Assembly (NCBI GenBank): GCA_963631865.1
Contig: CAVGTO010000002.1
Coordinates: 7,054 to 71,053 of the forward strand
Origin: Eggerthellaceae bacterium
Lineage (GTDB): Bacteria; Bacteroidota; Bacteroidia; Bacteroidales; Marinilabiliaceae
Direction of reading: 5' to 3'
DNA length: 64,000 nt
The notes under the pieces are model-generated. The model saw nothing but the letters and a program-made list of their open reading frames with translations. It ran no database searches and was not told the origin of the DNA. Below are positions 219 through 45,240 of the stretch, piece after piece (within the stretch, counting starts at the first letter, position 1; every line of letters begins with the position of its first letter). A program made the position numbers and the translations under genes.

Positions 219-896
219 ATGAGTACATACAACTTCGCAAAAGAATCGCTGAAAAAAGGCGAGCAGTTCAACTTCAGCAAAGAAGCGGGACTGAACTACA
301 TCCGCGTAGACTTGACGTGGAAAGGAGGAGCAGACCTGGACGTTTGCGCATTCCTTGTGAATGATGACGGCATCCTGGCTCACAATGAGGACTTCGTATA
401 CTACAATTCTGATTACAGGTGGGCTCCGAAGTCGAATGAAAATCCTACGGAGGGACATGTCGAGCCGTTCAACATGTCTGTCCACCGTACAAAAAAGAAT
501 TGGAGGGCAAATACGGTACCCGTTTCCGTAGACAATTCGGTAATCGGGTCTCCCGACGAATTGGGTGAAGACGAGGGCGAGGACTGCAGCGAGACCATGC
601 ACTTGGTTTTGGACAGAGTTGGCAATGACATTCGTGCGATTGTATTTGGCTGCGCCATCTATCCGCATCCCGAGAATCCGCAGACATTCAGCTCTGTAGT
701 CGATCCTGCCATCGTCATATCGGACGAGGCGACAGGCAATGTGCTGTGTCGTTTCGACATCAAGGAGAAGTTCGGAGCCGAGACTGCTCTTGAGGCTGGA
801 CGCATCATGCTCAACGACGAAGGCGAGTGGGTCTTCGAGCCGATTGGAAAGGGCTACACTGGAGGTATGCCGACATTGGCTGATATCTACGCCTAA
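219..896 (+). CDS. TerD-domain (tellurium-resistance/stress family) protein
   Basis: 225-aa ORF with TerD hallmarks: 'LKKGEQFNFSK...IRVDLTW', 'DLDVCAFLV', the acidic segment 'GSPDELGEDEGED', and a C-terminal 'EWVFEPIGKGYTGG...LADIY'. It appears to carry an insertion of about 35 aa relative to canonical TerD of about 190 aa. Confidence 0.8.
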   Translation: MSTYNFAKESLKKGEQFNFSKEAGLNYIRVDLTWKGGADLDVCAFLVNDDGILAHNEDFVYYNSDYRWAPKSNENPTEGHVEPFNMSVHRTKKNWRANTVPVSVDNSVIGSPDELGEDEGEDCSETMHLVLDRVGNDIRAIVFGCAIYPHPENPQTFSSVVDPAIVISDEATGNVLCRFDIKEKFGAETALEAGRIMLNDEGEWVFEPIGKGYTGGMPTLADIYA

Positions 897-908
897 GCCA
901 TCGGAGGT

Positions 909-1613
909 ATGGCAGAAGAGAAAAAAGGGAAACGTACGCCATATAAATTTGACTTCGAGAAGCAGAAATCCTTCAAATACGACTTCCGAAAGGAAGAAGA
1001 TGAAGAAGAGACCGTTGCTGAATCTTCGGAGAAGAAAAAGAATGGCCACGGCGCGATAATAGCCATTGCAGCCGCTGTGGTTTGCGTAGGTATTGCCGTA
1101 TATGCGTGGAATAACTATCGTAGTAATGAGGTAGTTACCAAGGATACTACTAGCAATGCAGAAGTTGTCACCAGCAATGAAGACAAGCAGCAAATAGTCG
1201 AAGAAGAGACTACTCCAGCTGCTTTCGACGCCGCAGAGACTTCTTCTCAACCAAGCGACGTTGCAACTGCAAGTCAAAGTGACAATTCTTCAAATGTTAC
1301 GGAGGCTTCGTCATCTGTAAATTCTAACACCACAGAGGCGTACGGGAATGCGGCGAGCGCTGATAACGCAAACGCCGGAATTGACAAAAACCTGCAAAAG
1401 GCATCTGCAGAAAGCGGTATATCTGAGCTGAAATCAAAGGCTTCCCCAAAAGCCACAACGGCGATTGGCAAGTCTGACGTAGACAAGATGGCTTACCTTG
1501 TAATACGAGGAAACTATGGCAATGGTGAGCGTCGTAAAGCGTTATTGGGAGATAGTTATACAACCATCCAAAATCGCGTTAACGACCTTTACCGGGCAGG
1601 CGAGGTACATTAG
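909..1613 (+). CDS. Single-pass membrane protein with a low-complexity linker and a C-terminal Cpl-7/CW_7-like cell-wall-binding repeat
   Basis: Starts 13 nt after the TerD gene. Charged N-terminus, one TM helix (GAIIAIAAAVVCVGIAVYAW), an S/T/N/A-rich linker, and the tail 'VIRGNYGNGERRKALLGDSYTTIQNRVNDLY', which resembles the CW_7 repeat. Confidence 0.55.
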   Translation: MAEEKKGKRTPYKFDFEKQKSFKYDFRKEEDEEETVAESSEKKKNGHGAIIAIAAAVVCVGIAVYAWNNYRSNEVVTKDTTSNAEVVTSNEDKQQIVEEETTPAAFDAAETSSQPSDVATASQSDNSSNVTEASSSVNSNTTEAYGNAASADNANAGIDKNLQKASAESGISELKSKASPKATTAIGKSDVDKMAYLVIRGNYGNGERRKALLGDSYTTIQNRVNDLYRAGEVH

Positions 1614-3465: not shown

Positions 3466-4941
3466 TTAGTTCCCGATTAATGAGACGACATCACTTTCGG
3501 AGAAGGGGGCGGGAGCGGGGCTCACGTCGGGGATGTTGTAGGATTTGAGGCAAAGAAGGTCGTGCTCGGGGTCGGCTTGCGGGAGGGCGAAGGGACGGGA
3601 GGCGTGGCCTTGGGCATCGATGTGGGCTATGTAGACGCGGCCATATTGACCGTCGTGGCGTTTGGAGGCGAAGACGACCCAGCGGCTTGAGCTGGACCAC
3701 GTGTGGTAGGTCTCGGAGAGCGGAGAATTGAGGGGCGAGACGTCGGCCTCCTCACCCGTATGGAGGTCAATCATGCGGAAATCTGTCTCGCGGTGCCATA
3801 TGGGGAAAGTGCCGCTCTCGGAGGCCGAGAAAAGGAGGAAATGGCCGTCGGGGGAGACCTTTGGGAAACTGGCTGACATGCCATAACGGCTTGCGCTCCA
3901 AAGGGTATCGATGGGGCCAGCCCACTCACTGTCATTACGATTGAAGCCAACGCGGAGAATGGAGTAACGCAGGCAGGCGAGGCTATCGGGCAACGGGAGA
4001 GCCGGCGCCGAGCAGAAATAGACAGTATCGGCATTGGGCGAGAAACAGGGGAAAGTCTCGAGCGTGGAGTCGCCACTTACGAGGGGCGAGAGGATCATCT
4101 TGCCGCTGTCGAAATCGGCAATGCAGAGGTCGCTCTGAGCGTCGTAGACCTCCAAGCGGCGGCTGCCTTGGGAATGGAGGAGCGGGATTATCTCGTTGGT
4201 GGAGAAGACGCCGTAGTGGCCATCGGGACTTATGTCGCCATAGACGGCGCCGCCTTTCATATGCGGGTTGCGGAGATTGACTTTGCGGAGCTCATCCACA
4301 GCCCCACCCTGCCCACAAGAATGGAAGAGGAGACTAGCGCCGCCCTCGCCGCGGACGTGGAAAAGAGTAGTACGGCCGTCATGGCTATGGATATGGCAGT
4401 TCATACAGCGGCCACCGAGATTGCGGTTGTCGGCAAGGATGCGGGAGTTGAAAGACGTCATGTCCCGCTCCTCAATCTGAATGGCGTTCCAGACCTCGTA
4501 GCCGGGCTCGATGAGGCGGTAGGTGACGAAGGGGTCGAAAAGGTCGTCACTCACATCGAAAGAGAAAGTATCGCAGAGGAAGGATCCCGCACGGCGGTAA
4601 TAGAGAGTTACGCCGACATGATTGTCGGACGCGCCAGCCAAAATCTTGCGCCAAACGCCCTCATCGATAACCACCTTACGCCCACGACTAGCCACGCGGA
4701 GCGACCCGTCTCCAGTCGCAAAATCCGCGCAAACGGCATCGACGGAGTCGCAGGTGAGCATAAAGTTGAGCGGGGCGATGGAACGCGGGATGGTCACTCC
4801 GCGGTAGTCGGGGTAAATTTCGTCGGCAGAGAGGGGAACGATGGGATAACCGTCCCCTTCGGGGATGGGGGTGCAGGCTGCGAAAAGTGCGGCGCTGGCG
4901 ATTAGAGACGATAGGCGGGGATGGGTATTATTATTGGGCAT
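3466..4941 (-). CDS. Lipoprotein, copy 1: N-terminal domain, CxxCH motif and a PD40/TolB-like beta-propeller
   Basis: ORF 3466..4974 begins at a TTG. The ATG at 4941 gives the lipobox 'SLIASAALFAAC' and overlaps the upstream stop (TAATG). Motifs: PDYRGVTIP..APLNF, YRLIEPGYE, CMNCH, and SPDG-type blades (ISPDGHY, FSPNADT, VSPDGHF, WSSSSRWVVFAS). Confidence 0.8.
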   Translation of the reverse strand: MPNNNTHPRLSSLIASAALFAACTPIPEGDGYPIVPLSADEIYPDYRGVTIPRSIAPLNFMLTCDSVDAVCADFATGDGSLRVASRGRKVVIDEGVWRKILAGASDNHVGVTLYYRRAGSFLCDTFSFDVSDDLFDPFVTYRLIEPGYEVWNAIQIEERDMTSFNSRILADNRNLGGRCMNCHIHSHDGRTTLFHVRGEGGASLLFHSCGQGGAVDELRKVNLRNPHMKGGAVYGDISPDGHYGVFSTNEIIPLLHSQGSRRLEVYDAQSDLCIADFDSGKMILSPLVSGDSTLETFPCFSPNADTVYFCSAPALPLPDSLACLRYSILRVGFNRNDSEWAGPIDTLWSASRYGMSASFPKVSPDGHFLLFSASESGTFPIWHRETDFRMIDLHTGEEADVSPLNSPLSETYHTWSSSSRWVVFASKRHDGQYGRVYIAHIDAQGHASRPFALPQADPEHDLLCLKSYNIPDVSPAPAPFSESDVVSLIGN

Positions 4942-6488
4942 TATTTTTTGGAATGTAGTTGGCAGTAGAGCCAATAGGAGTGGGCGAAACTGCGTTTGAG
5001 GGCCGAGGCGTCGCGACGCTGCATGAGATCGTTGAAGCGGTCGAAATCGCGGACCACGTCGGAAGGCATCTCGATGCCCGCGAGTCGTGCACGGACCTCG
5101 GGCGGCGCGACGGTCGAGACAACCATCAGAGCCTCGGCGTAGGTGCGCGTCATGAGGCCATTGGCGTAGGCCAGGTAATCCTCGGCGAAATCCGCCATAG
5201 AGGTTTCCTGGAGATCGAGGGCGAGAAGGTATGTGCGCGCAAGGCCGTTGGAAGGATTGGCATCCAAGAGGTTGCGGAGCGAGCGGCGATAGTCGTCCGA
5301 AGCGCGGAGGGTGTCGCGGGAGGAGAGATAGGCACGCTTGTCGGCGAGCCAGGCGAGGTATGCGGCGCCACGGTTCTCGGGGCGGCAGGCATGGGCGAAT
5401 TTGGCATGGCGGAAAGTATGGCTGAGCATACCCAAGTATTTATCGGCCGCTTGCTCGTCGCCACGGATAATATTAATCTCGGCGAGGCGAATCACGTGGC
5501 GCGCGCAAGAGTGGTTGGGCGAGAAGATCATACCGAGGATTGTGGCGTGCTCGGCAAGGGTCATGTCGCCTATGGCATACCACACTTGGCCGGCGGCGGT
5601 GATGCTGAGGTAGTTGCCCGAGGGGGCCACGGGGAGGAAGAGTTGCGTCTGGGCGAGGTCGATATCGTCTATGGCGACGTCGGCCTTTTCGCGGAAGAGG
5701 TGGAGAGTGTATAGGCAATTGGCAATCTGCGTATTGCGGACACGAGGCGGGTAGTCGGCGGGCGAAAGCTTCTTGTTCCACCAAGTCTTGGTATCGACAC
5801 GGAGGATAGACTCGGAAGTGAGGTCGGGCCAGCCTAACCAGCATCCGCCAATGAAACCATGCCAAGGGGCTAGAAACATGGCCACGAGAGCCATTGCGGC
5901 AATGCGCCACCGACGGCGAGCCACCTCCGCGGCAATGATATACGCAAAAGCCACCACGCAGCCGTAGCCAACGGACGTGAGGCCCAAAACAACTATGGCG
6001 AAAGCCACCAAAGCCCTAACTCTCGGCCACTTAGAGACGGGATATAGATTGGCAAGGATGACGCCGAAGAGAAGCGACAGAGACGACGACAACGGATATT
6101 CGCCAACGCACTGGCGCCCCGCCTCCCAAATCATGACTGCCACGCCCGCGCCGAGCGCCACACGCCAATCGACCCACAGGCGACGGAGCCCATATGCCAC
6201 GAAACCGCCAAGCGCATAGAGCACGAAGACGACGATGACGGGTCCGCAGCCAACGTAGTAATAGAATTGCGTAAGGAAACCGCCCACGACGGCCGGCAGC
6301 CAGGCACGGGAGTCGTAGACCCCCTGGCTAAACATCTGACGGATGAAGTCGGACGAGGACAAAAAGAGTGAGAACTGCTCCCGGTGGTAGAAATGGTAGG
6401 GGTAGCAGAGCATGAAGAATATGAGGATTGCGGCGGCTACTGCGGCGCAAACAACTATCGAGACGATAAGATGACGTGTGGGACGCAT
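4941..6488 (-). CDS. Large polytopic membrane protein with a helical C-terminal half, copy 1 (DUF6057-like by recollection)
   Basis: ORF 4941..6518 starts at a TTG. The ATG at 6488 matches the N-terminal length of the paralogs. Shares 'GGFLTQFYYY' and the C-terminal helical region with the 6623 and 10530 genes. It is the most divergent of the three. Confidence 0.75.
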   Translation of the reverse strand: MRPTRHLIVSIVVCAAVAAAILIFFMLCYPYHFYHREQFSLFLSSSDFIRQMFSQGVYDSRAWLPAVVGGFLTQFYYYVGCGPVIVVFVLYALGGFVAYGLRRLWVDWRVALGAGVAVMIWEAGRQCVGEYPLSSSLSLLFGVILANLYPVSKWPRVRALVAFAIVVLGLTSVGYGCVVAFAYIIAAEVARRRWRIAAMALVAMFLAPWHGFIGGCWLGWPDLTSESILRVDTKTWWNKKLSPADYPPRVRNTQIANCLYTLHLFREKADVAIDDIDLAQTQLFLPVAPSGNYLSITAAGQVWYAIGDMTLAEHATILGMIFSPNHSCARHVIRLAEINIIRGDEQAADKYLGMLSHTFRHAKFAHACRPENRGAAYLAWLADKRAYLSSRDTLRASDDYRRSLRNLLDANPSNGLARTYLLALDLQETSMADFAEDYLAYANGLMTRTYAEALMVVSTVAPPEVRARLAGIEMPSDVVRDFDRFNDLMQRRDASALKRSFAHSYWLYCQLHSKK

Positions 6489-6527
6489 AACAAGGGCGAA
6501 TATATAAAATATCGGCAAACATTTTTA

Positions 6528-6535
6528 TATCTTTG
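6528..6535 (+). promoter_or_regulatory. Candidate -7 box TATCTTTG for the 6623-13755 operon
   Basis: Exact TAnnTTTG match in the intergenic region between the two divergently oriented cassettes. Confidence 0.4.
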
Positions 6536-6622
6536 CACATATTTTAAGACAGCGAAGATGTGAGCCACCCGTCAGCACTCACCCTTTCCGAGACGGTCTC
6601 GGCACACATACTAACAACACCG

Positions 6623-8440
6623 ATGCACACGACAACCGACAAGAAACATAGCATGCCCAGCATAGCCTGCGCGGCACTCACTTTTGCCGCTTCATTTGCC
6701 TTTTGGCTCTTCGTGCACCCGGAGGCCATGTCGTTCCACGAGCAATATACGATGTTCCTTTGCACATGGGACTTTGCAGCGCATAGGCTGGCAGTGGCCG
6801 GAGGGCTGGCTGAATACGTTGGAGAATTCATAACTCAATTTGCTTATTACCCGGCAGCAGGAGCTGCACTCATGGCCTTGCTCATGGTGGGGCTCGGGAG
6901 TGGCGTATGGGCCGTCATGCGGAAGATGGGGGCCAGAGAAGGGCACTGTTGGCTGAGCGTCTTGCCCGTGGCGTTGCTCATTGGCTATATGGGCGACGAG
7001 AATGTGGAGCCGGCTTTTGCCGTGGCGCTTACAGGCGGAATATGGATGGCGGCGGGATATGGACTATTGCAAGGTCGGTGGGCGCGGGTTTTTGGAGCTG
7101 GGATTGGGACATGCGTATGTTATTGGGCTTTGGGGCCGGTGGCATGGGCGTTCGCAGTGCTTTGCGGCGTTATTGACATGCGGCGCGGGGCTGGTGTTTG
7201 GGCCGGGCTTGTTGGATTGGTTTGCCTTAGCATCATTTTTTTCATTGCCTCAATTAGTTGGATGAGTCAGTATACGACACAGAACATCCTCTTGGGTCAC
7301 AACTATCATAATTTCCGGATGACGTGGCCCGCCATGCAATTTGTGGTTGAGGCGAGCATTGTAGTCGTGCCTGTGGTCGGCTCATTTTTACCATCAATAG
7401 AGAAGATTTGGGTATCAGCAATCGAAGGCGTCACAATATTCATACTCAGTTCGATATTCGCAATCACCTCATACGATGCGGACAAATACGCAGCCATAGC
7501 ATACGACAGCCTCGTGCGCGCCGAGAAATGGGACGAAATAATAGAACGGGCAACCAAGCGAGCCCCAAAGGACGCCACGAGCATGACGGCCGTTAACCTC
7601 GCCTTGGCCGAGCGCGGCGAACTATGCGAAAGGATGTTCGCCTACCCGCAGAAAGGCGCGGAGGGACTCATAGCTCCATCGCGGCGCGACCAGTTATCCG
7701 CCATAACATCCGCCGAAGCCCTTTTCCGCCTCGGGATGGTGAACGAGGCGCAACACTACTTCTTCGACTCACAGGAAGGCATAGTAGACTGCCACAAGAG
7801 CGCTCGCCTAAGCAAACGCATTGCCGAGACGCTCATAGTGAACGGACGGTACGAGATGGCGCGGAAATACCTACATCGGCTCAGCAAGACCCTTTTCTAC
7901 AGTCAGTGGGGCAAGAAAGCCGAATGGGCGATAAAGAGCGAAGCCACGGTTTGCGCGCACCCCACGTGGGGCCGACTGCGCACCTTAAGGTACAAAGACG
8001 GCTTCGTCTGGAACTACTACGCCATGGACAAGATGCTGGCCATACTCTACACGAGCAACACAGGCAACCGCATGGCGCTGGACTATTACATGGCCCAATG
8101 CCTCTTACGGCGCGACATTCAGAGAGTTTGGAAAGGCCTCGGGTGGGCAATAGCCGACTATGGGCGGGACAACATCCCGCGCCACATCCAAGAGGCCGTG
8201 GCATTGGCATGGATCCAGGGGCATAAGGATTTTGAGGGCGTACCCATAACTCTTTCTGAGAGCGTCGTCTCCGACCTTATGGAATATATGCGCATCTACA
8301 CAGCCAACGCATCCGACCCGCGCCTCGACACACAGCGGTGGCGAGCCACATACTGGCACTACCTGCTGCGCCAAAAGCCATCGGACGCCACAACGGGAGC
8401 CACGCAGAAATCAACCGCCAACGAAGAACAGACACGATGA
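6623..8440 (+). CDS. Large polytopic membrane protein with a helical C-terminal half, copy 2
   Basis: The ORF is open from a GTG at 6560. The ATG at 6623 gives an N-terminus the same length as copy 3. Motifs: 'HPEAMSFHEQYTMFL', 'YVGEFITQF', 'NLALAERGELCERMFAYPQ', 'LGMVNEAQ', 'GRYEMARKYL'. Confidence 0.8.
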   Translation: MHTTTDKKHSMPSIACAALTFAASFAFWLFVHPEAMSFHEQYTMFLCTWDFAAHRLAVAGGLAEYVGEFITQFAYYPAAGAALMALLMVGLGSGVWAVMRKMGAREGHCWLSVLPVALLIGYMGDENVEPAFAVALTGGIWMAAGYGLLQGRWARVFGAGIGTCVCYWALGPVAWAFAVLCGVIDMRRGAGVWAGLVGLVCLSIIFFIASISWMSQYTTQNILLGHNYHNFRMTWPAMQFVVEASIVVVPVVGSFLPSIEKIWVSAIEGVTIFILSSIFAITSYDADKYAAIAYDSLVRAEKWDEIIERATKRAPKDATSMTAVNLALAERGELCERMFAYPQKGAEGLIAPSRRDQLSAITSAEALFRLGMVNEAQHYFFDSQEGIVDCHKSARLSKRIAETLIVNGRYEMARKYLHRLSKTLFYSQWGKKAEWAIKSEATVCAHPTWGRLRTLRYKDGFVWNYYAMDKMLAILYTSNTGNRMALDYYMAQCLLRRDIQRVWKGLGWAIADYGRDNIPRHIQEAVALAWIQGHKDFEGVPITLSESVVSDLMEYMRIYTANASDPRLDTQRWRATYWHYLLRQKPSDATTGATQKSTANEEQTR

Positions 8441-9918
8441 AGAAGCAAGTCAAGACATCATACCGCCTAAGCGCACCCACGTGGATTGCGGCCCTCGCCA
8501 CTGCCCTCGCCACAGCGGCATGCGCCGACTCGCCAACAGCCACCACGCCCACCGACGGCCTCGCTCCACACATCTGGCCCGACTATGCGGACGTTACGAT
8601 ACCTGCCGCCACGGCACCCCTCAACTTCTGCGTGGACAGCGCAGAACAGGTCTTCGCAAGGGTGACAGGCGAGCGAGGAGGCGAGATAACGGCCAACGGG
8701 CAATATGCCGACTTCGACATCGACGAGTGGCACGAACTGACGACCCGCAATATGGGAGCCGACCTTACGGTATCCGTATCCACAAAACGGAACGGCAAAT
8801 GGATGCGCCACAACGACTTCACCATCCACGTAAGCGCCGACAGCCTTGGCGACTATGGGCTGACGTATCGCAAGATAGCCCCGGGATATGAGACCTACAG
8901 CGATATTGGAATATACCAGCGCGACATACACACCTTACGCGAGGAGGCCATAGTGGCATCGACGCTCGTGCCCGGCCAATGCATGTGCTGCCACACGGCC
9001 AACAGAGCCAACCCGCAGCAACTGACGCTCCACTTCCGCGGCCGGCATGCCGCCACGCTTATTCAGGTGGACGGAAACCGCAAATGGCTCACCACCAAGA
9101 CGGACAAGACGCTGTGCAACTGCATGTACCCCTACTGGCACCCGAGCGGCAACTATTGCGCCTACTCACTGAACAAAGTGAACCAAGTTTTCCTGACGGG
9201 GCACGAGAAGTTTATAGAAGTCTTCGACCGCGCATCGGACGCATGCGTGATGGACGTCAGGACGAACGAGCTCATCCTCTCGCCACTGCTCTCGACGGAG
9301 GACTACGAGACGTACCCCGTATTCTCGGCCGACGGACGCACGATGTACTATTGCTCGGCCAAGGCGGGCGAGAGAGAGCCACGTTACGACCTATGCGCCA
9401 TAAGTTTCGATGCGGACAAAGGGACCTTTGGCACCAAGGTGGACACCCTTATCCATGCTTCCGCCACGGGCAAAAGCATATCGCTGCCGCGCCCATCGTA
9501 CGACGGACGTTTCGTGATGTATTGCCTTGCGGACTACGGCTACTTCCCGATAGACCACCGGGAGGCAGACCTCTGGATATTGAACCTCAGCACGGGAGCG
9601 ACCTACCCCGCCGAAGCCGCCAACAGCGCGGACACCGAGAGTTTCCACAATTGGAGCTCAAACTCGCGGTGGGTGGTATTCTCCAGCCGACGGCATGACA
9701 GCATGACAAGCCTGGCCTACATAGCGCACGTAGACACGGCTGGGCACGTAGACAAACCCTTCCTCCTCCCGCAGCACAATCCGAGAGAGTTCTACCGTAC
9801 TTCGCTCCACTCGTTCAACACGCCGGACTTCACCACCGAGCCCGTCCGGATTGACCCGCGGGCCACGCAGGCCGAGGTGCTCAGCGACGAGCGGATACAA
9901 GTGACAGTCAGGGAATAG
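8437..9918 (+). CDS. Lipoprotein, copy 2: CxxCH motif and a PD40/TolB-like beta-propeller
   Basis: The ATG at 8437 overlaps the upstream TGA (ATGA). Lipobox 'ALATAAC'. Motifs: PDYADVTIP..APLNF, YRKIAPGYE, CMCCH, 'ESFHNWSSNSRWVVFSSRR'. Confidence 0.8.
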   Translation: MKKQVKTSYRLSAPTWIAALATALATAACADSPTATTPTDGLAPHIWPDYADVTIPAATAPLNFCVDSAEQVFARVTGERGGEITANGQYADFDIDEWHELTTRNMGADLTVSVSTKRNGKWMRHNDFTIHVSADSLGDYGLTYRKIAPGYETYSDIGIYQRDIHTLREEAIVASTLVPGQCMCCHTANRANPQQLTLHFRGRHAATLIQVDGNRKWLTTKTDKTLCNCMYPYWHPSGNYCAYSLNKVNQVFLTGHEKFIEVFDRASDACVMDVRTNELILSPLLSTEDYETYPVFSADGRTMYYCSAKAGEREPRYDLCAISFDADKGTFGTKVDTLIHASATGKSISLPRPSYDGRFVMYCLADYGYFPIDHREADLWILNLSTGATYPAEAANSADTESFHNWSSNSRWVVFSSRRHDSMTSLAYIAHVDTAGHVDKPFLLPQHNPREFYRTSLHSFNTPDFTTEPVRIDPRATQAEVLSDERIQVTVRE

Positions 9919-9954
9919 ATTTCAACTGAAAGCAAGAAAAAACAAAATCAAGAT

Positions 9955-10533
9955 ATGAAAAACGGAATTATAGCCCTTGCGGCATGCGCAATGGCACTCA
10001 CAGCATGCGACCAAACGCCGCTTTGCCACATCCACGGCACAGTGCCCTCTGAGAAATGGGACGGGCAATACGTATTCTTCGTGCCGCAATACGCCAAAGA
10101 CAGCATCGGAGTGGACTCCACCAAGATAACGGGTCACGAATTCACCTTCGAGACCACCAAGAAGGCCCTCTACGACGTACGCCTCAGCTGGCGCACACGC
10201 TACGGCATCCAGAACCTCCTCGTGGCCACCGAGCCGGGCCTTGTAGAGATAAGCCTGGACAGCATAAGCCACGGTGGCGGCGCCCCGCTGAACGACTCAC
10301 TGGAGGCGTGGAAGGAGCGCACGATGGCGTATAACGAGACATCGCACGCGTTGGCCGTGGCGTACCGCAACTTCTACGCGGCGGGCGACAGCATCATGGG
10401 CGACGCCGTGAAGGCACAGGCCAAAGCGGCCTACGAAAAGTATCGCGACGAAACTCTCCGCCTGGCCGAGAGCGTAGACGGCACACCATTGGAGATCTTC
10501 CTGCACCAGATATACGCGGCAAGAAAGAAATGA
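9955..10533 (+). CDS. Small lipoprotein, DUF4369-like N-terminal domain plus a helical tail
   Basis: 192 aa with lipobox 'ALTAC'. 'IHGTVPSEKWDGQYVFF...' resembles the DUF4369 beta-sandwich that usually precedes TlpA-type thioredoxins, but no thioredoxin CxxC is present. Its stop overlaps the next start (ATGA at 10530). Confidence 0.5.
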   Translation: MKNGIIALAACAMALTACDQTPLCHIHGTVPSEKWDGQYVFFVPQYAKDSIGVDSTKITGHEFTFETTKKALYDVRLSWRTRYGIQNLLVATEPGLVEISLDSISHGGGAPLNDSLEAWKERTMAYNETSHALAVAYRNFYAAGDSIMGDAVKAQAKAAYEKYRDETLRLAESVDGTPLEIFLHQIYAARKK

Positions 10534-12311
10534 CACAACAAAAGGCATGGCATGCGGCCCTGACGTCGGCATTCGGCGTCGGGGTATTCGCATTTTGGCG
10601 ATTGGCGCACCCCGAGGCACTATCGTGCGCCGAGGAGCTGCAGCTCTTCCTCTTTAGCGGCGACTACCTCACGGCACGGCTAGCCTACCCCGGCGGCCCG
10701 GCCACATACGTGGGCGAGTTTCTCACGCAGTTCTACAACCCTCTCACGCTCGGCGCCGTCATAGCAGCCCTGCTGATGGTGGTTGTCCAGCGGCTCACGT
10801 GGAAGTCTATGAAGGGCGTGCCCGAGGAGTTAGGGGAGAGAGGCGGAGAGGTGGCCTATGGGCTGTCGTTCGTCGTGCCGGCCTTATTGCTCGTCTTGAT
10901 GGGAGACGAGAGTATTTTGACGGGCCATATTGTCGAAGTGACATTAGGGCTTGGCGTTTGCTGCGCCTTCGCACGATATGGGACTTCGGATTTGCGCCGA
11001 GCGGTCATTTTGGGCATTGGTTTGCCCGTGACGTATTACCTTGGAGGATCGGCTGTTTACCTTGTCTTGGCATATGCCATAGTTTGGCGCATCGCCTCGC
11101 GGAAGAGGTTTGGGGCTTGGGACGCTATGTATCCCCTGGCCGTTTGCGAGATAGGGCTGTCGATATGGGTGGCGTCGCGTTTGGCGGCCTACCCTATCGA
11201 GAGGCTTGCCGTGGGCATTGGGAATTACCGTATGGCGGAGGTGCCTGTGGCGGTCGGATTGTCGATGCCCGCTGTAGGGCTCTTGGCCGCTTTGGCGGGA
11301 TTGAGAGTGATGAACGTCAGGCGGGTGTCGGGGCTCGGGATATTGGGTGTCATGCTGCTTTGCGTTGTCGGCACACGACTCTCTTACGACGAGTTCAAAT
11401 ATCGGGTGATGAAATATGACCTTTGCCTGCGCAAACGCGATTGGAAAGAGGCCATACGCATAGGCGAGAAATATGGAGCAAAATCACCACTAGAATTGGC
11501 ATCGATAAACTTCGCCCTTGCCATGCGCGGCGAGATGGCCGAGAGGATGTTCGAGTTCCCGCAAGTGAACAGCGAAGGACTATTGCCAGTCTTCAGCCGT
11601 GAAGTATTCTCGACAATGATGACGGGCGACATATATTTTGAACTAGGAATGGTGAACACGGCGCAGCGTTTCGCCTTCGAGGCACAAGAGGCCATACCTA
11701 ACCACCAGAAGAGCGGCCGACTGACGCGCCGCCTCGCCGAGGTGGCCATCGCCGACGGACATTACGCCCTAGCCCGGCGTTATCTCGGGGTGCTTAAGAA
11801 GACCTTCGCGTACCGTTCGTGGGCCCGACAGATGGAGGAACTTATCGCGGACGAGGCGCGGGTGAACGCCCATCCGCTTTTCAGCCGCCTGAGGCGGCAG
11901 CGAGTAAAGGAGGACTTTTTCTACAGTGACAGGGAGCTGGACCAGATGCTGGGCCTTCTCTTCAACCATGACAAGACGAACCGCTTGGCGGTGGACTACC
12001 TCTTGGCATGCGAACTGCTGACCAAGAACTTGCCTGCCTTCGTACGCTACGTGCCCCTGTTGGGACAGTTGCCGGACGGCGGCGGCATCCGCATTCCGAG
12101 GGCATATCAGGAGGCGCTGTGCATGGCGTGGGCGCAGAAACATACGAGTTTTGATGGCATGCCGTGGCGACTTGACGCGGAGGTCAAACAGTCGTTTGTT
12201 GACTTCGCACGGATTCACTCGGCCAATCAGAACGACGCGCGGCTCGGCGAGGGGCGCATTGGCAGCAGCTACTGGGCGTACTACACTCGTCAGCTAACAG
12301 TTAACAAGTAA
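10530..12311 (+). CDS. Large polytopic membrane protein with a helical C-terminal half, copy 3
   Basis: 593 aa. Motifs: 'HPEALSCAEELQLFLF', 'YVGEFLTQF', 'NFALAMRGEMAERMFEFPQ', 'LGMVNTAQ', 'GHYALARRYL'. The last codons (QLTVNK) lie in a heptamer array. Confidence 0.85.
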   Translation: MTQQKAWHAALTSAFGVGVFAFWRLAHPEALSCAEELQLFLFSGDYLTARLAYPGGPATYVGEFLTQFYNPLTLGAVIAALLMVVVQRLTWKSMKGVPEELGERGGEVAYGLSFVVPALLLVLMGDESILTGHIVEVTLGLGVCCAFARYGTSDLRRAVILGIGLPVTYYLGGSAVYLVLAYAIVWRIASRKRFGAWDAMYPLAVCEIGLSIWVASRLAAYPIERLAVGIGNYRMAEVPVAVGLSMPAVGLLAALAGLRVMNVRRVSGLGILGVMLLCVVGTRLSYDEFKYRVMKYDLCLRKRDWKEAIRIGEKYGAKSPLELASINFALAMRGEMAERMFEFPQVNSEGLLPVFSREVFSTMMTGDIYFELGMVNTAQRFAFEAQEAIPNHQKSGRLTRRLAEVAIADGHYALARRYLGVLKKTFAYRSWARQMEELIADEARVNAHPLFSRLRRQRVKEDFFYSDRELDQMLGLLFNHDKTNRLAVDYLLACELLTKNLPAFVRYVPLLGQLPDGGGIRIPRAYQEALCMAWAQKHTSFDGMPWRLDAEVKQSFVDFARIHSANQNDARLGEGRIGSSYWAYYTRQLTVNK

Positions 12312-12325
12312 CAGTTGACAGTTTA
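12291..12325 (+). repeat. (CAGTTNN)x5 heptamer array spanning the stop codon of the 10530 gene
   Basis: cagctaa cagttaa caagtaa cagttga cagttta. Confidence 0.85.
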
Positions 12326-12336
12326 CGAATAGAACC

Positions 12337-13755
12337 ATGCAAAAAGACATACTCTCCGCCACAGCCATTTTGGCGGCAACCATAATGTCATCTTGCGCCG
12401 AGAGGCCGACGGACGCACGGGAAATGGCCGCCGCACCCGAGATATGGCCGGACTATGCGGGCGTAACAATCCCGAAAGGCATAGCGCCGCTCAACTTCGC
12501 CATGGCCACGGACGACGCCACGGCGGTCTACGCCACAGCCACAAACGGCAAAGGCAATGAGATAACAGCCTCGGGCGAGGAAGCCGACTTCGACATCGAC
12601 GAGTGGCACAAGCTATTGGCGGATTGCGCAGGCGGCGACAGCATAATGGTAAAAGTCTCGGCGAAGTACGCCGACGGATGGAAGGCATACCGCCCATTCG
12701 CCATATACGTATCGGGCGACACGCTTGCCGACGGGGCATTGGCATACCGACGCATTGCCCCGGGATATGAAGTGTATAGCCATATGGGCATCTACGAGCG
12801 CGATTTGGCCACTTTCCGCGAGACTGCCATAATGGAGAACACGGAGGTGACAAACAGCTGCATAAACTGCCATACGTCGCGCCGCGGCAGCACGGGCGAC
12901 TACGTCTTCCACATCCGAGGCGAAAAGGGCGGCACTGTGGTATGCCACAACGGAAAGAAGAGGCTGGTCAACATGAAGCGACCCGAGACGATTGGCGCCA
13001 CGACGTACCCCGCATGGCATCCCGACGGGCGATATATGGCCTTCTCTGTTAACACCACCCGCCAATCGTTCCACCAGACGAGCGAGAAACGCTTGGAAGT
13101 CTTCGACGTGGCGAGCGACATGGTGGCCTACGATGCCGACGAGGACCGCATAATAACCACACCACTGCTCAACAGGACAGACAGTTGCTGGGAGACCTTC
13201 CCGTGCTTCAGCGCCGACGGGCGCACACTCTACTACTGCTCAGCGCGCCCGCAAGCCGTACCGGCCCACGTCACGGACATTCACTACATCCTGAACAGCA
13301 TCAGTTTCGACGCCACGGATGGGCAATTCGGGACAAAGATAGACACCGTATTGGACCTCAGCGAGCGAGGCCTCAGCATATCCCTACCCCGCACATCGCC
13401 AGACGGGCGATACCTAATGTTCACCGCCTGCAACTATGGCACCTTCCCCATTTGGCACCGCGAGGCGGACCTCTGGATAATGGACCTCAGGACAGGCGAG
13501 GCGAGGCCAATGGACGAGATAAACAGCGACGACACGGAGAGTTTCCATAATTGGAGCTCGGACTCGCGATGGGTGGTGTTCTCGAGCCGCCGCGGCGACG
13601 GGCTTTATACGCGGCTCTACCTGGCTCACGTCGATGCCAACGGGCATGCCTCGAAGCCGTTCCTCCTTCCGCAGGAGAGCCCCAAGAAGTTTTATCGGGA
13701 GATGATGGAGTCTTATAATGTGCCGGAGATGAAACAGTTAACAATTAACAGTTGA
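12337..13755 (+). CDS. Lipoprotein, copy 3: CxxCH motif and a PD40/TolB-like beta-propeller
   Basis: 472 aa with lipobox 'IMSSC'. Motifs: PDYAGVTIP..APLNF, YRRIAPGYE, CINCH, WHPDGRY / FSADGRT / TSPDGRY blades, 'ESFHNWSSDSRWVVFSSRR'. The last 7 codons (13735-13755) are a cagttaa caattaa cagttga array. Confidence 0.85.
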   Translation: MQKDILSATAILAATIMSSCAERPTDAREMAAAPEIWPDYAGVTIPKGIAPLNFAMATDDATAVYATATNGKGNEITASGEEADFDIDEWHKLLADCAGGDSIMVKVSAKYADGWKAYRPFAIYVSGDTLADGALAYRRIAPGYEVYSHMGIYERDLATFRETAIMENTEVTNSCINCHTSRRGSTGDYVFHIRGEKGGTVVCHNGKKRLVNMKRPETIGATTYPAWHPDGRYMAFSVNTTRQSFHQTSEKRLEVFDVASDMVAYDADEDRIITTPLLNRTDSCWETFPCFSADGRTLYYCSARPQAVPAHVTDIHYILNSISFDATDGQFGTKIDTVLDLSERGLSISLPRTSPDGRYLMFTACNYGTFPIWHREADLWIMDLRTGEARPMDEINSDDTESFHNWSSDSRWVVFSSRRGDGLYTRLYLAHVDANGHASKPFLLPQESPKKFYREMMESYNVPEMKQLTINS

Positions 13756-13785: not shown

Positions 13786-14589
13786 TTACCCCTTTTCCAT
13801 CGAGTCGTTGAAGGTTTCTATTTCGGAGACAAGGTTCTGGGCATGCTCCTTGAGCATGAAGATTTGGAAGGGGAGCATAGACTCCTCTTCGCGGGAATCT
13901 ATTAGGGCTTGGATATACTCGGCCTTGTCCTCCTTGCGGACTTTAGAGGGTACGAGATTGAATTCCATCTGGATGTAATTCATAATGAGGCGGGACATAC
14001 GGCCATTGCCATCGACCCAGGGATGAATGGCCACCAGTTTGTTGTGGGCATCGAAACTGAGCAGGTAAGCCTCCATCTCATCCGGGTTTTCAATCAATTT
14101 TTGCCTACGGATATTCATCTCATTGCAGAAATCAGACAAGTGGGACGGCACTTTCTGAAAGTTGAGATATGAGCGGCCACCAGCACCAGCCGTGACGTTA
14201 CAGAGTCGCAAATCACCCACCGAGGAGTCGAACTCGCCCATAGGCGTATTATATATGCTGCCTGTGTTTCGCATCACTATGGCCGCCAAACCTTTAAGCA
14301 TCTCTAAGGAGAAAGGCTTATGACTTGCGGCAAGAGATTTGGCACGTTGATAAGCATGCATAAGGTCGAGGTTCATAAGTTGCTCCACCATAGGTTTACC
14401 CTTGGCCGCAATGCCATCCTCGAAGAGGAGTTGGTTCTCAATTTCCGTAACAGTGGAGCCCTCGATTGCCGTGGAATGGGTAATAAGGGAGTAGAGGTAG
14501 AATTTCTGATAGTCAATCTGATCCGCTATACCTAAACGTTTATACTCCGCGAGAGCATCCCGCAGTTTGCCTATATATTCGCTTATCAT
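13786..14589 (-). CDS. Fic/DOC family protein (AMPylase-type)
   Basis: 267 aa with the canonical Fic motif 'HPWVDGNGRMSR'. Visibly more A/T-rich than the flanking genes. Confidence 0.85.
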   Translation of the reverse strand: MISEYIGKLRDALAEYKRLGIADQIDYQKFYLYSLITHSTAIEGSTVTEIENQLLFEDGIAAKGKPMVEQLMNLDLMHAYQRAKSLAASHKPFSLEMLKGLAAIVMRNTGSIYNTPMGEFDSSVGDLRLCNVTAGAGGRSYLNFQKVPSHLSDFCNEMNIRRQKLIENPDEMEAYLLSFDAHNKLVAIHPWVDGNGRMSRLIMNYIQMEFNLVPSKVRKEDKAEYIQALIDSREEESMLPFQIFMLKEHAQNLVSEIETFNDSMEKG

Positions 14590-14831: not shown

Positions 14832-16340
14832 TTACTCCTTGACTTTGAACTGCCAGAAGGAAGCCTCGCTCCAGCTGCCGTAGTTCTCGAAGTCGCCACC
14901 GTCGGGGTAAACAAGTGTCATATGCTCGTTGTCGAGGTAAACGACCTCGTAGTCGGTAACGTACTTAGCCTCACCAGAGTGATCCTCTTTCCAGGCATTA
15001 ATCTCATAAGGCCAGAGGACAGAGTTCTCACCAGTTACGAGATGGCCGACAGCCCAATTCTCGGATGTGCGGGTGTTGTCGAAAGACCAAGTAGTTGTGT
15101 TGATGAGGTTGCCCTCGCCATCGTACTTTTTGAGTTCGCCGCCATCACTGAGGGTGAAGTAGGCATCGAAGCTCTCGTCGCCTTGGAGCTTGCCGCCAAC
15201 AGCGTTGACAACTTGATCAGCATCTCCGAAAGACGCATCGCCGCCTTGGGATATACCCCACCACTTGCCTGTACCTTGTGAGTAAAGCTCGGTGCCAGTT
15301 CCGGCCTTGTAGCCGATGTTGCCCCAGACGCAGCCGTCGGGAGCCTCGGTGTTCCAAGTCCACTTCTTCTCGGAGCCATCGACATTAGCGAGGCAACCAT
15401 CGTAATCCTCGGCCTTGAACTGCCAGAAAGCAGCCTCATCCCAGCCACCGAGGCCGGAGAAATTGCCGCCATCGGGGTAGACGAGAGTCATCTCAGACGG
15501 GGTGATGTAGACAACCTCATACTCGGTAACGTACTTGCCACCACCGTTCATCTCGAACGGCCAAAGGATAGAGTTCTCACCAGTCTTGAGGTGGTACTTA
15601 GCCCAATCGGTATTCTCGGTCTGCTCAACTACCTCGTAGGTGGTCTCGTTGAGCTTAGAGCCATTGCCGTCGTACTTCTCAATCATACCGTCTTCGGTGA
15701 AGACCATGTAGGCATCGAAACTTTCCTCGCCAGTGAGCTGGCCAGAAACAGAATGCTTAACCTGATCAGCCCATTCGGCCTCCTCTACGACGCCCCACCA
15801 TTGGCCATCGCCATTCTTCGCGAAGGTCTCGCCGTTGGTAGTGCCTCCGCCATATGCGAAGTTACCCCAGACGCGGCCATTGACAGCAGAAGTGTTCCAC
15901 TTGTAGGTCTTGCGGCCAGAGTTTGAGCAGAAGAGCTTCTCGGCAGTCGTGAGGTCTTGCTTAACGTAGACGTTGGCAGTCTTCTCGGCAACGATCTCAG
16001 TTCCGTCGGTATTGTAGAGTATGACGTAGAACTTCTGGTTGGGGTCCGAGCCACGGTTGGGCGCAATGGTGAAGGAGCCAGAAGCACCGAGGGCGAGGAC
16101 GTTCATGCTGCCATCGGACTTGAGGTTGTAGACCTTGACAATTTGGGCGGGGGAGGTGGTGTATGTGAAGTAATTGCCATCCTCGGCCGGGTTGCCGTCG
16201 GCGTCGGTCTGGGTGAAGGAGAAGGCTTGGGATACGGCTTCAGAGGTGGTCTGAATGGGGTCGAAAGTGCCGTCTTCCTCCACGGGATCGCAAGCGCAGA
16301 GGAGGCAAGCGGTCGCCAGTAAGATATAACGTTTCTTCAT
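14832..16340 (-). CDS. PUL-associated surface lipoprotein with two tandem domains of about 165 aa (putative glycan-binding, SusE/F-like role)
   Basis: Lipobox 'LLCAC'. Lies directly downstream of SusD. The internal duplication is visible ('KWNTSAVNGRVWGNF...WQFKAED' versus 'TWNTEAPDGCVWGNI...WQFKVKE'). Confidence 0.6.
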   Translation of the reverse strand: MKKRYILLATACLLCACDPVEEDGTFDPIQTTSEAVSQAFSFTQTDADGNPAEDGNYFTYTTSPAQIVKVYNLKSDGSMNVLALGASGSFTIAPNRGSDPNQKFYVILYNTDGTEIVAEKTANVYVKQDLTTAEKLFCSNSGRKTYKWNTSAVNGRVWGNFAYGGGTTNGETFAKNGDGQWWGVVEEAEWADQVKHSVSGQLTGEESFDAYMVFTEDGMIEKYDGNGSKLNETTYEVVEQTENTDWAKYHLKTGENSILWPFEMNGGGKYVTEYEVVYITPSEMTLVYPDGGNFSGLGGWDEAAFWQFKAEDYDGCLANVDGSEKKWTWNTEAPDGCVWGNIGYKAGTGTELYSQGTGKWWGISQGGDASFGDADQVVNAVGGKLQGDESFDAYFTLSDGGELKKYDGEGNLINTTTWSFDNTRTSENWAVGHLVTGENSVLWPYEINAWKEDHSGEAKYVTDYEVVYLDNEHMTLVYPDGGDFENYGSWSEASFWQFKVKE

Positions 16341-16439: not shown

Positions 16440-18347
16440 TTAGTTATAGATAGGAGCCGAGGTCATGAGGCACTCGGAACCGCTCCAACCGGGGTTCTGC
16501 TTGAGGACGCTCTCGTCGTCGACGATGTTGATCTGAGAGGTCGGGATGGGCCAGAAGCCGTCGGTATCGGCATAACGCTTAGCCCAAGAGCAAGAAGCGT
16601 GGTGCATTGTGGTCCAGTTGCCGGTGTAGTTGACGCGGGTGTTCTCCTTGCGGTTGAGGGTCTTGGCAGCGAGGCAGGTCTCTCCACCGTCCTTGCCAGA
16701 CCAACGACGGAGGTCGTTGAAGCGGAGACCCTCACAAGCGAACTCGAAGCGGCGCTCGTTCTGGATGTTGATGAGCGAGTAGCTCTCAGCAGGAAGGCCG
16801 GCGCGGGCGCGGACAGCGTTCATGCCATCTGCGTTGCCGGAGAGCTCGGAGTGCATAAGGAGGATGTCAGCGTAGCGCATGAGGACGAAGTCGGTGTAGT
16901 GGGAGCCCTGCATACAGTTACCTGTGAGAGGCGCAGCCGCACCACCATTCTCGAGGCGGTAGAAGTCCCAGAAGGTGTAAGGGCCGTCGGTAGTGCTAGA
17001 CCAGTTGGAAGAACTGTAGCCGGAGACGGGGGTCTTGATATCCTTGACGGTTACGGCAACAAGTTTCTTGTTATAAAGGCCGGCGTCCTCGGTGCAAGAT
17101 GTGGTGTAGGCGAACTTGGTGAGCTCGTTCTCGCAGTCGATGATGGTAGCGGCCTTACGGGGATCGGAGTCGCTCCAATCATCCCAAAGCTGAGCGTTGA
17201 CGGTGCCCTGGCCCCAGCCCTGAGCGTAGGGGAAGGTTTTCTCGCCGCCATTGACATTGCCACTGCCGTCCTCGTCGCAACGGAGAGAGACGTAGAGAGA
17301 AGACATGTTGCAGAAGCCCATGCCGGTGGTGCCGTTCCAAGAAGCGGTGTTGCCGTACTGGATTTGGAAGAGCTGCTCCTCGTTGCCGTTGCCGGCCCAA
17401 GTCTTGCCTGCGTCGTAGAGATCCTTTACGAACTCATAGGACTGGGCGGTGAACTTGTTGGAGTAGTCCCAAAGGAGACGGTAGTCCTCGACGAGGGCAT
17501 ACTGACCGCTGTTCTGGACGTCAGCGAGGATGTCGATGACGTTCTGCTTGGTGAGGGAAGTGCTCTCGACGCCCTGCTGCTCGGGGAGTGTAACTGCCTC
17601 GGGGTTGGCGGTGGCGAGTTCACCGACCTTCTTGTAGAATCCCTCGTAGAACATGTAGGCGCGGGCGAGGTAACCGCCTGCAGCACCCTTGGTGGCGTGG
17701 CCGTCGCCCTGGGTGGTGGAGCCGTAAGTCATGAGGTTATACGCGCTCATGAAGTCGGCGAGGATGTGGGGGTAGATAACCTCCTCGGCGCTCTGCTGGG
17801 GGCAAGGGTCGGGAGCCGCAGCAGTGTAGTATGCAGGGATGTCGCCCCACATCTGCGCGCCCCAGAGGTAGAAGAGACCGCGGAGGAAGTAAGCCTCGCC
17901 GAGGAGCTGCTTGCGCGTGGTCTCGTCGATGCTGTTCATAATGGACTCGTCGGTGTTGAGGATAGCGTTGGCGCGGGCGATGGCCACGTAGGTAACGTGC
18001 CAAGTGTTGTTGCTCGAGCTGGTAGAGGTGCCGAAGTAGTCGGTATTGGTGACCATGAGGTGACCGATAGCGTGGCACTCCGTATCGCCTGTACCGCCGC
18101 CGCCGTTGCAGTCGTCACTTGCGAGGATGTTGACGAAGAAGGGAGCGTTGAGAGGGTTATTGGAGATGGAGTTGAGACAGCCGTAGAGGGCAGCGAGCTC
18201 CTTGTTGAGGTCGGCTGCGGAGCCAGGGTAGTTACCCGAGTTGGCCTCCGTGTAGTTTTCGCTGTCGAGGAAGTCGTCGCACGACGAGAAAGAGAGTGCG
18301 AGCGACGCGGCGGCAGCCAGTGCTATAAATTTTTTCATAATTAGCAT
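16440..18347 (-). CDS. SusD/RagB family nutrient-binding outer-membrane lipoprotein
   Basis: Lipobox 'SFSSCDDFLD', typical SusD length and motifs, and a position 18 nt downstream of SusC. An alternative ATG lies at 18338. Confidence 0.85.
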   Translation of the reverse strand: MLIMKKFIALAAAASLALSFSSCDDFLDSENYTEANSGNYPGSAADLNKELAALYGCLNSISNNPLNAPFFVNILASDDCNGGGGTGDTECHAIGHLMVTNTDYFGTSTSSSNNTWHVTYVAIARANAILNTDESIMNSIDETTRKQLLGEAYFLRGLFYLWGAQMWGDIPAYYTAAAPDPCPQQSAEEVIYPHILADFMSAYNLMTYGSTTQGDGHATKGAAGGYLARAYMFYEGFYKKVGELATANPEAVTLPEQQGVESTSLTKQNVIDILADVQNSGQYALVEDYRLLWDYSNKFTAQSYEFVKDLYDAGKTWAGNGNEEQLFQIQYGNTASWNGTTGMGFCNMSSLYVSLRCDEDGSGNVNGGEKTFPYAQGWGQGTVNAQLWDDWSDSDPRKAATIIDCENELTKFAYTTSCTEDAGLYNKKLVAVTVKDIKTPVSGYSSSNWSSTTDGPYTFWDFYRLENGGAAAPLTGNCMQGSHYTDFVLMRYADILLMHSELSGNADGMNAVRARAGLPAESYSLINIQNERRFEFACEGLRFNDLRRWSGKDGGETCLAAKTLNRKENTRVNYTGNWTTMHHASCSWAKRYADTDGFWPIPTSQINIVDDESVLKQNPGWSGSECLMTSAPIYN

Positions 18348-22405: not shown

Positions 22406-22799
22406 TTAAGATATGCAAAGCATATCAGTCAATTGCAGAAAGTAGTCGTTCGACCAAATATTTAGCTCATTAGGATTTCTGACAAAGGGAAGGACGTCGG
22501 CCTTAACTTGATTTATATCAGCAGAAGAGAGCCTAGCCCTCAACAAATCATGAATGCTCGAAATCAAAATTAACATTAGGCTCGACAAGAGAGAAATCCA
22601 TATCCTCCGAGAAGCGTTGAAGACCGTGGAATATGCGCAGGCACGTGCCGCCATAGAAAGCAGCCACATCAAAGAACCCACCATTGTAGAGGCCAGCAAG
22701 GATGACTTGCTGATTCACCTCGAAAATAGCATTTCTGCGCTGCTGCTCGGTTGTGAGCTCATACGCCGACAACATCTCGTCGTAAATCTCGTTCTTCAT
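22406..22799 (-). pseudogene. abiEii: Decayed AbiEii-type nucleotidyltransferase toxin (frameshifted, internally deleted)
   Basis: The 22548..22799 ORF carries the N-terminal 'FYGGTCLRIFHGLQRFSEDMDFS' motif and then stops. A second frame (22406..22699) carries a C-terminal-like tail. Together they make about 130 codons, against my recollection of about 250-300 for intact members. Confidence 0.55.
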
Positions 22800-23422: not shown

Positions 23423-23545
23423 ACGCGATAATAGCAAAATTTCGCACAGAAAAGCAACAATTACTTGCTTTTCTGTACGAAATCTGACTGCTTTTCGGTT
23501 GTCAGTGCCCTCCACCGCTACAGCTAGTCAAAAGTCCGCAGAAAA

Positions 23546-24688: not shown

Positions 24689-24712
24689 TGGAATCGATGA
24701 TCGGTAAAGGGG

Positions 24713-41160: not shown

Positions 41161-41294
41161 AGTTTTTATAGAGGATTGATTAAATGCTAATTTTTTCAGT
41201 CCACAGTTACGGAGTAACTGCGACTGCGTTTTTGCCTAGGGAACGTGTTCGTACCCTCCCTGGGCTGAAGCCCGGGGGTACACATACCACTTTT

Positions 41295-41390
41295 CAGTTA
41301 GCAGTTCACAGTTACTAGTATTTGGAGATGTTTTTTCTGCCCAATTTCCCACGGTCGGGGCCACCGTAACTGTGAACTGAGAACTGAGAA
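41295..41390. repeat. Inverted pair of short heptamer arrays
   Basis: cagttag cagttca cagttac (41295-41315) and gtaactg tgaactg agaactg (41366-41386). The second abuts the stop at 41397. Confidence 0.75.
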
Positions 41391-41396
41391 AAGATG

Positions 41397-45200: not shown

Positions 45201-45240
45201 GTAATTTATGGAGAGAACAGTTTGTATGGGGAGGGGAATT

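Follow-up and report, generated by a model that had tools for sequence, protein, structure and literature searches.

The 64,000-nucleotide stretch analysed here (the window; positions 7,054 to 71,053 of the forward strand of contig CAVGTO010000002.1, assembly GCA_963631865.1, deposited as Eggerthellaceae bacterium and placed by GTDB in the Marinilabiliaceae, Bacteroidales) encodes three paralogous lipoproteins built of an N-terminal beta-sandwich domain and a PD40 beta-propeller, each carrying a CxxCH motif of the kind to which haem c is attached. Paralog A (3466-4941, minus strand; PD40 E=3.8e-8) likely starts at the ATG at 4941, the mechanically called open reading frame (ORF) extending to a TTG at 4974; paralog B (8437-9918, plus strand) has 493 amino acids (aa), begins with MKKQ and is already recorded in public assemblies as the exact same protein; paralog C (12337-13755, plus strand; 472 aa; PD40 E=9.7e-18) is the one modelled below. 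The motif reads CMNCH in A (4393-4407, translated from 4407 to 4393 on the minus strand), CMCCH in B (8980-8994, plus strand) and CINCH in C (12859-12873, plus strand; Cys175, Asn177, Cys178, His179). It is followed by a second element that includes the position of residue 192 and an invariant arginine: FHVRG in A (4348-4362, minus strand), LHFRG in B (9028-9042, plus strand) and FHIRG in C (12907-12921, plus strand; residues 191-195, with His192 and Arg194), the coordinates having been verified for all three. In the alignment of the three ORFs, which are 33-39% identical overall, CxxCH forms one block of columns after 'YR.I.PGYE' and before 'FH.RG', and C190, C193, H194, H206, R208 and G209 (paralog A numbering) are invariant. 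Translation and alignment thus bear out the initial annotation as to the three motifs, their coordinates, their common alignment position and the elements on either side. Its description of the proteins as lipoproteins is equally sound: the N-terminus of A, B and C is a lipoprotein-type signal ending in Cys, and the lipobox Cys is kept in 90-97% of the propeller family. PD40 (PF07676) scores 33.5-64.1 bits in the three proteins, against a Pfam cut-off of 20.9. A six-frame scan of the window, limited to open frames of 100 codons or more, meets CxxCH only four times (A, B, C and one antisense frame), the chance expectation from the composition of the real window genes being 0.0013 per 500 residues.

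Because A, B and C are paralogs, the real test of the motif is its conservation across the family, which comprises about 495 clusters at 50% identity (E <1e-30). Exactly one CxxCH was found in all 126 close homologues (at least 49% identity) and in 145 of the 150 best cluster representatives (33-50% identity), the other five being two fragments and three full-length proteins. The same holds for every full-length gene in the 160 loci that were fetched, each consisting of a match with up to 10 kb on either side: 156 of 156 genes in 80 genomic loci and 90 of 90 in 80 metagenomic loci picked with divergent queries (246/246 combined). In a merged alignment of 414 non-identical members, with identities down to about 33%, CxxCH is kept in 411; by residue (paralog C numbering), Cys175 is found in 411, Cys178 in 412, His179 in 411, Asn177 in 401, Arg194 in 411, Tyr224 in 406 and Arg138 in all 414. 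The initial annotation had named absence of the motif from orthologues as grounds for giving up the haem proposal, and on this point the proposal survives. Four further histidines (H228, H246, H374, H404) are conserved in 84-93% of the members. The histidine of 'FH.RG' (His192) is present in 376; 22 members, largely paralogs of the A type, have Tyr there, and 12, largely of the B type, have Gln. His192 as an obligatory sixth ligand or as a zinc ligand was rejected, since these 34 members keep CxxCH.

Three full-length members (P0225, P0248, P0281) have no CxxCH and retain the remainder of the propeller. They are 33-36% identical to one another and nearer to motif-bearing members than to each other, and the losses are therefore independent. 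All three have also lost Asn177, His179, Arg194 and Tyr224. CxxCH, Asn177, Arg194 and Tyr224 thus behave as one functional unit, which points to one cofactor pocket, and the three proteins may be cofactor-free 'pseudo' members. The same observations bear on the notion that the residues are purely structural, matching the haem signature by chance and kept by packing. The one point that speaks for it is that no direct evidence of a cofactor exists; against it stand three polar or reactive residues conserved almost absolutely at 33% overall identity, three independent losses in which the same five or six residues disappeared in concert, and the low chance expectation of the motif given above. We regard a purely structural role as very improbable.

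On balance we lean, by a modest degree, towards CxxCH being a functional cofactor site, most likely for a single, covalently bound haem c. Covalent haem c is favoured because both cysteines and the adjacent histidine are jointly invariant, because the arginine and tyrosine are coupled to them and because the proteins have an export signal. Conservation of the second Cys together with the His next to it would be exactly what two thioether bonds and an axial ligand require. Of the features of a c-type cytochrome, a motif conserved across the family and periplasmic export are both present, the latter seen in the lipoprotein signals and in fusions of the propeller to a membrane protein, DUF6057 (see below), at its C-terminus, an end that lies outside according to the charge pattern.

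The predicted structure fits this interpretation less well. The AlphaFold2 model of paralog C (m60e8db63c832, built on a 63-sequence alignment) has a mean predicted local distance difference test score (pLDDT) of 89 and a predicted template-modelling score of 0.88, with a beta-sandwich at residues 27-125 and a propeller at 134-466 that, read from the strand order, would have about six blades. The first sheet of the model has four strands, the last of them formed by CINCH (175-179); FHIRG (191-195) makes up the strand after it. Several observations weigh against haem c. Residues 175-181 are modelled as a regular beta-strand paired with 189-194 (local pLDDT about 78-85); a haem-c site normally has helical-turn geometry, and in a strand Cys i and Cys i+3 would point opposite ways, which is incompatible with a single haem unless the apo-model is locally wrong, as the local dip in confidence makes possible. 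The comparison of the model with the PDB by Foldseek retrieved no cytochrome, only generic S9-peptidase-type propellers (acylaminoacyl- and prolyl-peptidases) with TM-scores of at most 0.41; in Pfam, Cytochrome_C7 remains below its cut-off (E=0.24, 11.7 bits against 24.8); the NCBIfam scan of the lipoproteins found no cytochrome domain; and no invariant sixth ligand exists, residue 192 being Tyr (22) or Gln (12) in part of the 414 members. Further, the window and, in the 160 loci, the surroundings of the module of propeller and membrane protein yielded no ccsBA/resBC or other cytochrome c maturation genes, and neither a thioredoxin-type reductase nor a further cytochrome c.

Apart from PD40, the Pfam and NCBIfam libraries return for A, B and C sub-threshold propeller families only, leaving the proteins with no recognisable cytochrome domain or fold, and neither the full-protein search nor the motif-region profile search of the PDB gave a significant solved relative. 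Ten of the 11 PDB matches of the motif-region profile are c-type cytochromes, all below significance (E 0.13-8.3), with contexts that include KKCINCH and SSCLNCH. The structure prediction that the initial annotation had proposed as a check places the motif in a beta-strand; no cytochrome fold was recognised and the 'FH.RG' histidine is not obligatory. Its central claim, a single c-haem on a propeller lipoprotein, stands as far as the near-invariant motif, the export, the System II of the lineage and the coupled loss are concerned, and is left without backing by the missing cytochrome domain or fold and by the strand model. As to System II, nrfAH occurs with ccsA/ccsB in Bacteroides thetaiotaomicron, in Porphyromonas gingivalis and in Prevotella intermedia, and B. 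thetaiotaomicron has extra ccsBA copies (PMC10434189); given ccsA/ccsB and nrfAH in these related genera, the lineage can make c-type cytochromes.

The strand model agrees better with a different cofactor, namely a non-haem metal (Zn, Fe, Cu) or a Cys/His catalytic site on a beta-hairpin, the CxxCH spacing being coincidental. Cys175, Asn177 and His179 would lie on one strand face beside residue 192 and Arg194 of the neighbouring strand, the two stretches (175-181 and 189-194) being modelled as adjacent strands with moderate confidence. The lack of a detected cytochrome fold or domain and of nearby maturation genes would find an explanation, and the 84-93% conservation of H228, H246, H374 and H404 recalls histidine-rich propeller metal centres. 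In the same strand, however, Cys178 would face away from Cys175 and His179, and yet it is equally invariant (412/414). A Cys2His2 zinc site requires four fixed ligands, and the sole nearby candidate for the fourth is residue 192, which varies in CxxCH-bearing members. Arg194 and Tyr224, lost together with the motif, are not metal ligands; they would fit haem-propionate or pocket contacts and would not be needed in a zinc site, so that the coupled loss is more in keeping with a cofactor pocket than with a metal site of four ligands. An exported CxxCH protein in a lineage with System II would, moreover, be exposed to haem attachment. A metal site, which the initial annotation had mentioned in passing, or a catalytic site of this kind is in our judgement unlikely, if the most serious of the alternatives.

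Each propeller gene of the window is directly preceded by a gene for a DUF6057 (PF19529) membrane protein: DUF6057-1, the partner of A (4941-6518, minus strand; E=4.5e-84), DUF6057-2, the partner of B (6560-8440, plus strand; E=2.7e-141), whose start is uncertain (GTG at 6560 or ATG at 6647), and DUF6057-3, the partner of C (10530-12311, plus strand; E=1.3e-146), scoring 283.8, 472.7 and 490.3 bits against a cut-off of 29.8. The stop codon of DUF6057-1 overlaps the start ATG of paralog A by 1 nt (TAATG, 4939-4943), that of DUF6057-2 overlaps the start of paralog B (ATGA, 8437-8440) and that of a DUF4369 gene overlaps the start of DUF6057-3 (ATGA, 10530-10533), which suggests translational coupling. 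On account of these overlaps, the layout is read as an operon (DUF6057-2, paralog B, DUF4369, DUF6057-3, paralog C) and a divergent pair (DUF6057-1, paralog A). The same layout is found in the closest relatives identified (loci L004-L007, 64-67% identical), and among the 160 loci the order DUF6057-then-propeller recurs almost without exception, most often with one to three such pairs per locus. BLAST missed DUF6057 in seven loci; in the three of these where the upstream gene was read, its product is a polytopic membrane protein of 504-618 aa, divergent but similar in overall look.

In four proteins the two partners are fused in a single ORF (P0157, 857 aa; P0167, 994 aa; P0194, 860 aa; P0221, 787 aa), the DUF6057 membrane and tetratricopeptide repeat (TPR) part being followed by the CxxCH propeller, with loss of the lipoprotein signal. 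These fusions are 'Rosetta stone' evidence for a putative physical complex, with both parts probably on the same side of the membrane. The AlphaFold model of DUF6057-3 (pLDDT 92) shows some nine helices in the membrane and, at 288-592, a TPR-like domain, and its Foldseek matches in the PDB are TPR proteins only, all with E 3.5e-3 or weaker. Loops 2, 4, 6 and 8 are rich in Arg/Lys and loops 1 and 3 are acidic, a charge pattern that puts the N-terminus on the inner side and the TPR domain on the periplasmic side, in agreement with the fusions to an exported propeller protein. The invariant residues of DUF6057 (F40, Q67, G75, D297, W305, R397 and R401, among others) include no His or Cys; Pfam and NCBIfam identify nothing but DUF6057 in the partners, and no WWD motif was matched in DUF6057, in the window or in the 160 loci. 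DUF6057 as a haem lyase, a quinol dehydrogenase or a haem- or quinone-based redox partner was accordingly rejected, having neither WWD nor an invariant His or Cys, and DUF6057 as a GT-C-type transferase was dropped, neither a GT-C glycosyltransferase nor CcsBA being among the Foldseek matches listed, and nothing else speaking for such a transferase. Overlapping codons, near-universal adjacency and fusions tie the propeller and DUF6057 together. The initial annotation had passed over this obligate partner.

The DUF4369 gene of the operon (9955-10533, plus strand) encodes a 192-aa lipoprotein (PF14289 E=2.9e-6) without a thioredoxin domain. DUF4369 usually precedes thioredoxin-like domains in Bacteroidota, and its presence brings up another explanation, that the motif is a redox-active CxxC dithiol/disulfide engaged in periplasmic thiol-disulfide exchange, perhaps related to the DUF4369 gene. 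CxxC is a classic redox motif, and 26 homologous DUF4369 ORFs were found in the 80 genomic loci, mostly at the same cluster position. No DUF4369 gene was detected, however, in the 80 metagenomic, more divergent loci, although CxxCH is kept there; the propeller protein has no thioredoxin fold, its motif being modelled in a propeller strand; and a dithiol would leave the invariant His after the second Cys, as well as the coupled Asn177, Arg194 and Tyr224, unexplained. With the DUF4369 protein itself devoid of a thioredoxin domain, we hold a redox-active CxxC to be improbable, well behind a metal site.

The neighbourhoods of the 160 loci contain no redox partners for the propeller. The additional genes that recur there encode SusC/SusD pairs and a handful of uncharacterised lipoproteins, all of them commonplace in Bacteroidota and uninformative; a mannan-utilisation operon lies in the neighbourhood of the Bacteroides hominis locus. 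A protein of 353-376 aa is encoded directly downstream of the propeller gene in L056 (9435-10565; with a C-terminal RidA/L-PSP domain) and L051 (9465-10592), and has homologues in 10 of the 80 genomic loci, including that of B. hominis. Four loci titled Clostridium sp. CAG:343 (L006), Bifidobacteriaceae (L007), Subdoligranulum (L052) and Lachnospiraceae (L075) carry the Bacteroidales-type cluster with 47-64% protein identity, and these bins are probably mislabelled or contaminated.

If covalent haem c is accepted as the working interpretation, the following sequence of events can be proposed. The propeller protein would leave the cytoplasm through Sec and receive its lipid at the lipobox Cys, and a periplasmic System II (CcsBA) synthase would link haem to Cys175 and Cys178, with His179 as the proximal iron ligand. 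The haem site would lie where the first blade meets the inner strand of the second blade of the roughly six-bladed PD40 propeller, the other side of the pocket being lined by Asn177, Arg194, Tyr224 and residue 192, which is His in most members, Tyr in most A-type and Gln in some B-type proteins. Residue 192, which shares a strand face with the invariant Arg194, is variable, and this suggests that a distal pocket is present and not a fixed sixth ligand; judged by this pattern, the distal side is probably open or weakly ligated, and the haem would be five-coordinate or weakly ligated, a state typical of enzymes or sensors and less suited to simple electron transfer. The propeller and the DUF6057 inner-membrane protein would form a fixed 1:1 module, the periplasmic TPR-like domain presumably holding the propeller at the membrane; DUF6057 itself, since it has no invariant His or Cys, would give neither electrons nor haem. 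Taken in full, the picture is of a so far unrecognised family of c-type cytochromes, with a single, probably five-coordinate haem inside a PD40 propeller blade of a lipoprotein. Lipoprotein and DUF6057 would together form an obligate module of two proteins at the inner membrane, of which Bacteroidales from the gut, the rumen and the environment have between one and three ancient paralogous copies, and which would serve as a periplasmic haem enzyme or small-molecule sensor. We put this fuller picture forward tentatively, with less assurance than haem attachment as such.

Elsewhere in the window, the following genes were noted. Positions 219-1613 (plus strand) encode a TerD-domain protein and then a protein whose middle part is of low complexity and rich in Ser/Ala and whose C-terminus has a CW_7 repeat. 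A Fic/DOC family gene (13786-14589, minus strand) lies directly downstream of paralog C, and in the same place in the identical Logan contig L001. It is followed by the gene for a 502-aa lipoprotein (14832-16340, minus strand) that is clearly duplicated internally (two repeats of some 170 aa, each with '...EA.FWQFK' at its end) and has no Pfam match; this gene adjoins SusD (16440-18347) and SusC (18366-21629) and has homologues in 12 of the 80 genomic loci. The iron-sulfur and flavoprotein subunits of a fumarate reductase/succinate dehydrogenase are encoded at 23933-26659 (minus strand), possibly together with the unannotated ORFs 22796-23515 and 26724-27452; these genes are typical of the anaerobic respiration of Bacteroidales, and no cytochrome c genes are nearby. 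A cluster at 29886-35106 (plus strand), which encodes IspD-like cytidylyltransferase, epimerase/dehydratase, LicD, polysaccharide flippase-type and CDP-glycerol glycerophosphotransferase-like proteins, has the appearance of a surface-glycan locus of a teichoic-acid-like or phosphocholine type. Positions 37456-45278 (minus strand) encode two very large proteins, the first of 1233 aa with Big_5 and CopC-like domains and the second of 1292 aa with no Pfam match.

The literature searched contains no paper on DUF6057, none on CXXCH combined with PD40 and none describing the propeller family, whose members bear the public database labels 'TolB family protein', 'PD40 domain-containing' or hypothetical. 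Members of the Bacteroidales, among them Prevotella, Segatella and Bacteroides, predominate in the communities of gut and rumen; their c-type cytochromes are believed to be very few, chiefly NrfAH, and they depend on an external supply of haem. The propeller family often has three copies per genome. If it binds haem c, a widespread periplasmic haemoprotein would be added to the physiology of Bacteroidales, DUF6057 would gain its first functional handle, the extra ccsBA copies of B. thetaiotaomicron could be explained and a new way to build a haem site into a beta-propeller would be at hand. If it does not, the family would be a documented false positive for motif-based cytochrome prediction. 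We propose it as a candidate for a c-type haem site that is embedded in a propeller and comes with an obligate partner in the membrane.

Compared with known systems, the propeller lipoproteins resemble TolB in being periplasmic PD40-type propellers with about six blades. They differ in that A, B and C are lipoproteins with CxxCH and with a beta-sandwich in place of the TolB N-domain, and in that their neighbours are DUF6057, DUF4369, Fic and SusC/D genes, not tolQRA-pal. TIGR02800 (TolB) scores 18.4, 19.8 and 36.1 bits in A, B and C, against a cut-off of 343.15. With scores so far below the cut-off and no tol/pal neighbours, the initial annotation was right to argue against a Tol-Pal role. PorE of type IX secretion was rejected as well, NF052230 reaching 18-20 bits against a cut-off of 600.

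The initial annotation had also called a single c-haem fused to a propeller an unusual architecture. As a combination it is already known: haem c and a beta-propeller occur together in cytochrome cd1 nitrite reductase (NirS), in the quinohaemoprotein alcohol and amine dehydrogenases and in hydrazine synthase. What would be unusual is a motif embedded in the propeller itself. The NirS-type propeller haemoproteins are periplasmic, with a CxxCH haem c; the propeller forms the substrate site with the haem close by, and the haem c sits in a separate, mostly helical cytochrome domain that is recognised by domain models. In the present family CxxCH is embedded in the strands of the first blade, and the searches detected no cytochrome domain; unlike in NirS and the quinohaemoprotein dehydrogenases, neither a second cofactor (d1 haem, pyrroloquinoline quinone) nor an electron-transfer partner is evident. 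The first haem site in the alpha subunit of quinohaemoprotein amine dehydrogenase (1jmx, chain A, residues 8-53, CMGCH-x12-HQR) shares the CxxCH-x12-H-x-R spacing of paralog C (170-213, CINCH-x12-HIR), with a domain E of about 1.3, which is not significant.

A single CxxCH haem on a mostly beta scaffold is also known from cytochrome f, cytochrome P460 and cytochrome c'-beta, which together with the propeller haemoproteins come closest in function. The motif of cytochrome f, CANCH, has the same CxNCH form as the motifs of paralogs A and C, and P460 and c'-beta have a five-coordinate, ligand-binding haem, as is predicted here. These proteins differ from the propeller family in being beta-sandwiches with no DUF6057-type partner, and they show no detectable similarity to it in sequence or fold. 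Some bacteria have dedicated synthases for particular cytochromes, and CcsBA/ResBC is a polytopic membrane protein acting on periplasmic CxxCH proteins; DUF6057, likewise polytopic, differs in having neither the Trp-rich WWD motif nor an invariant His, and in a fold that matches TPR proteins only. The three partners are clear members of DUF6057 (PF19529), and the pairing or fusion of this family with a CxxCH propeller is not described in the literature searched.

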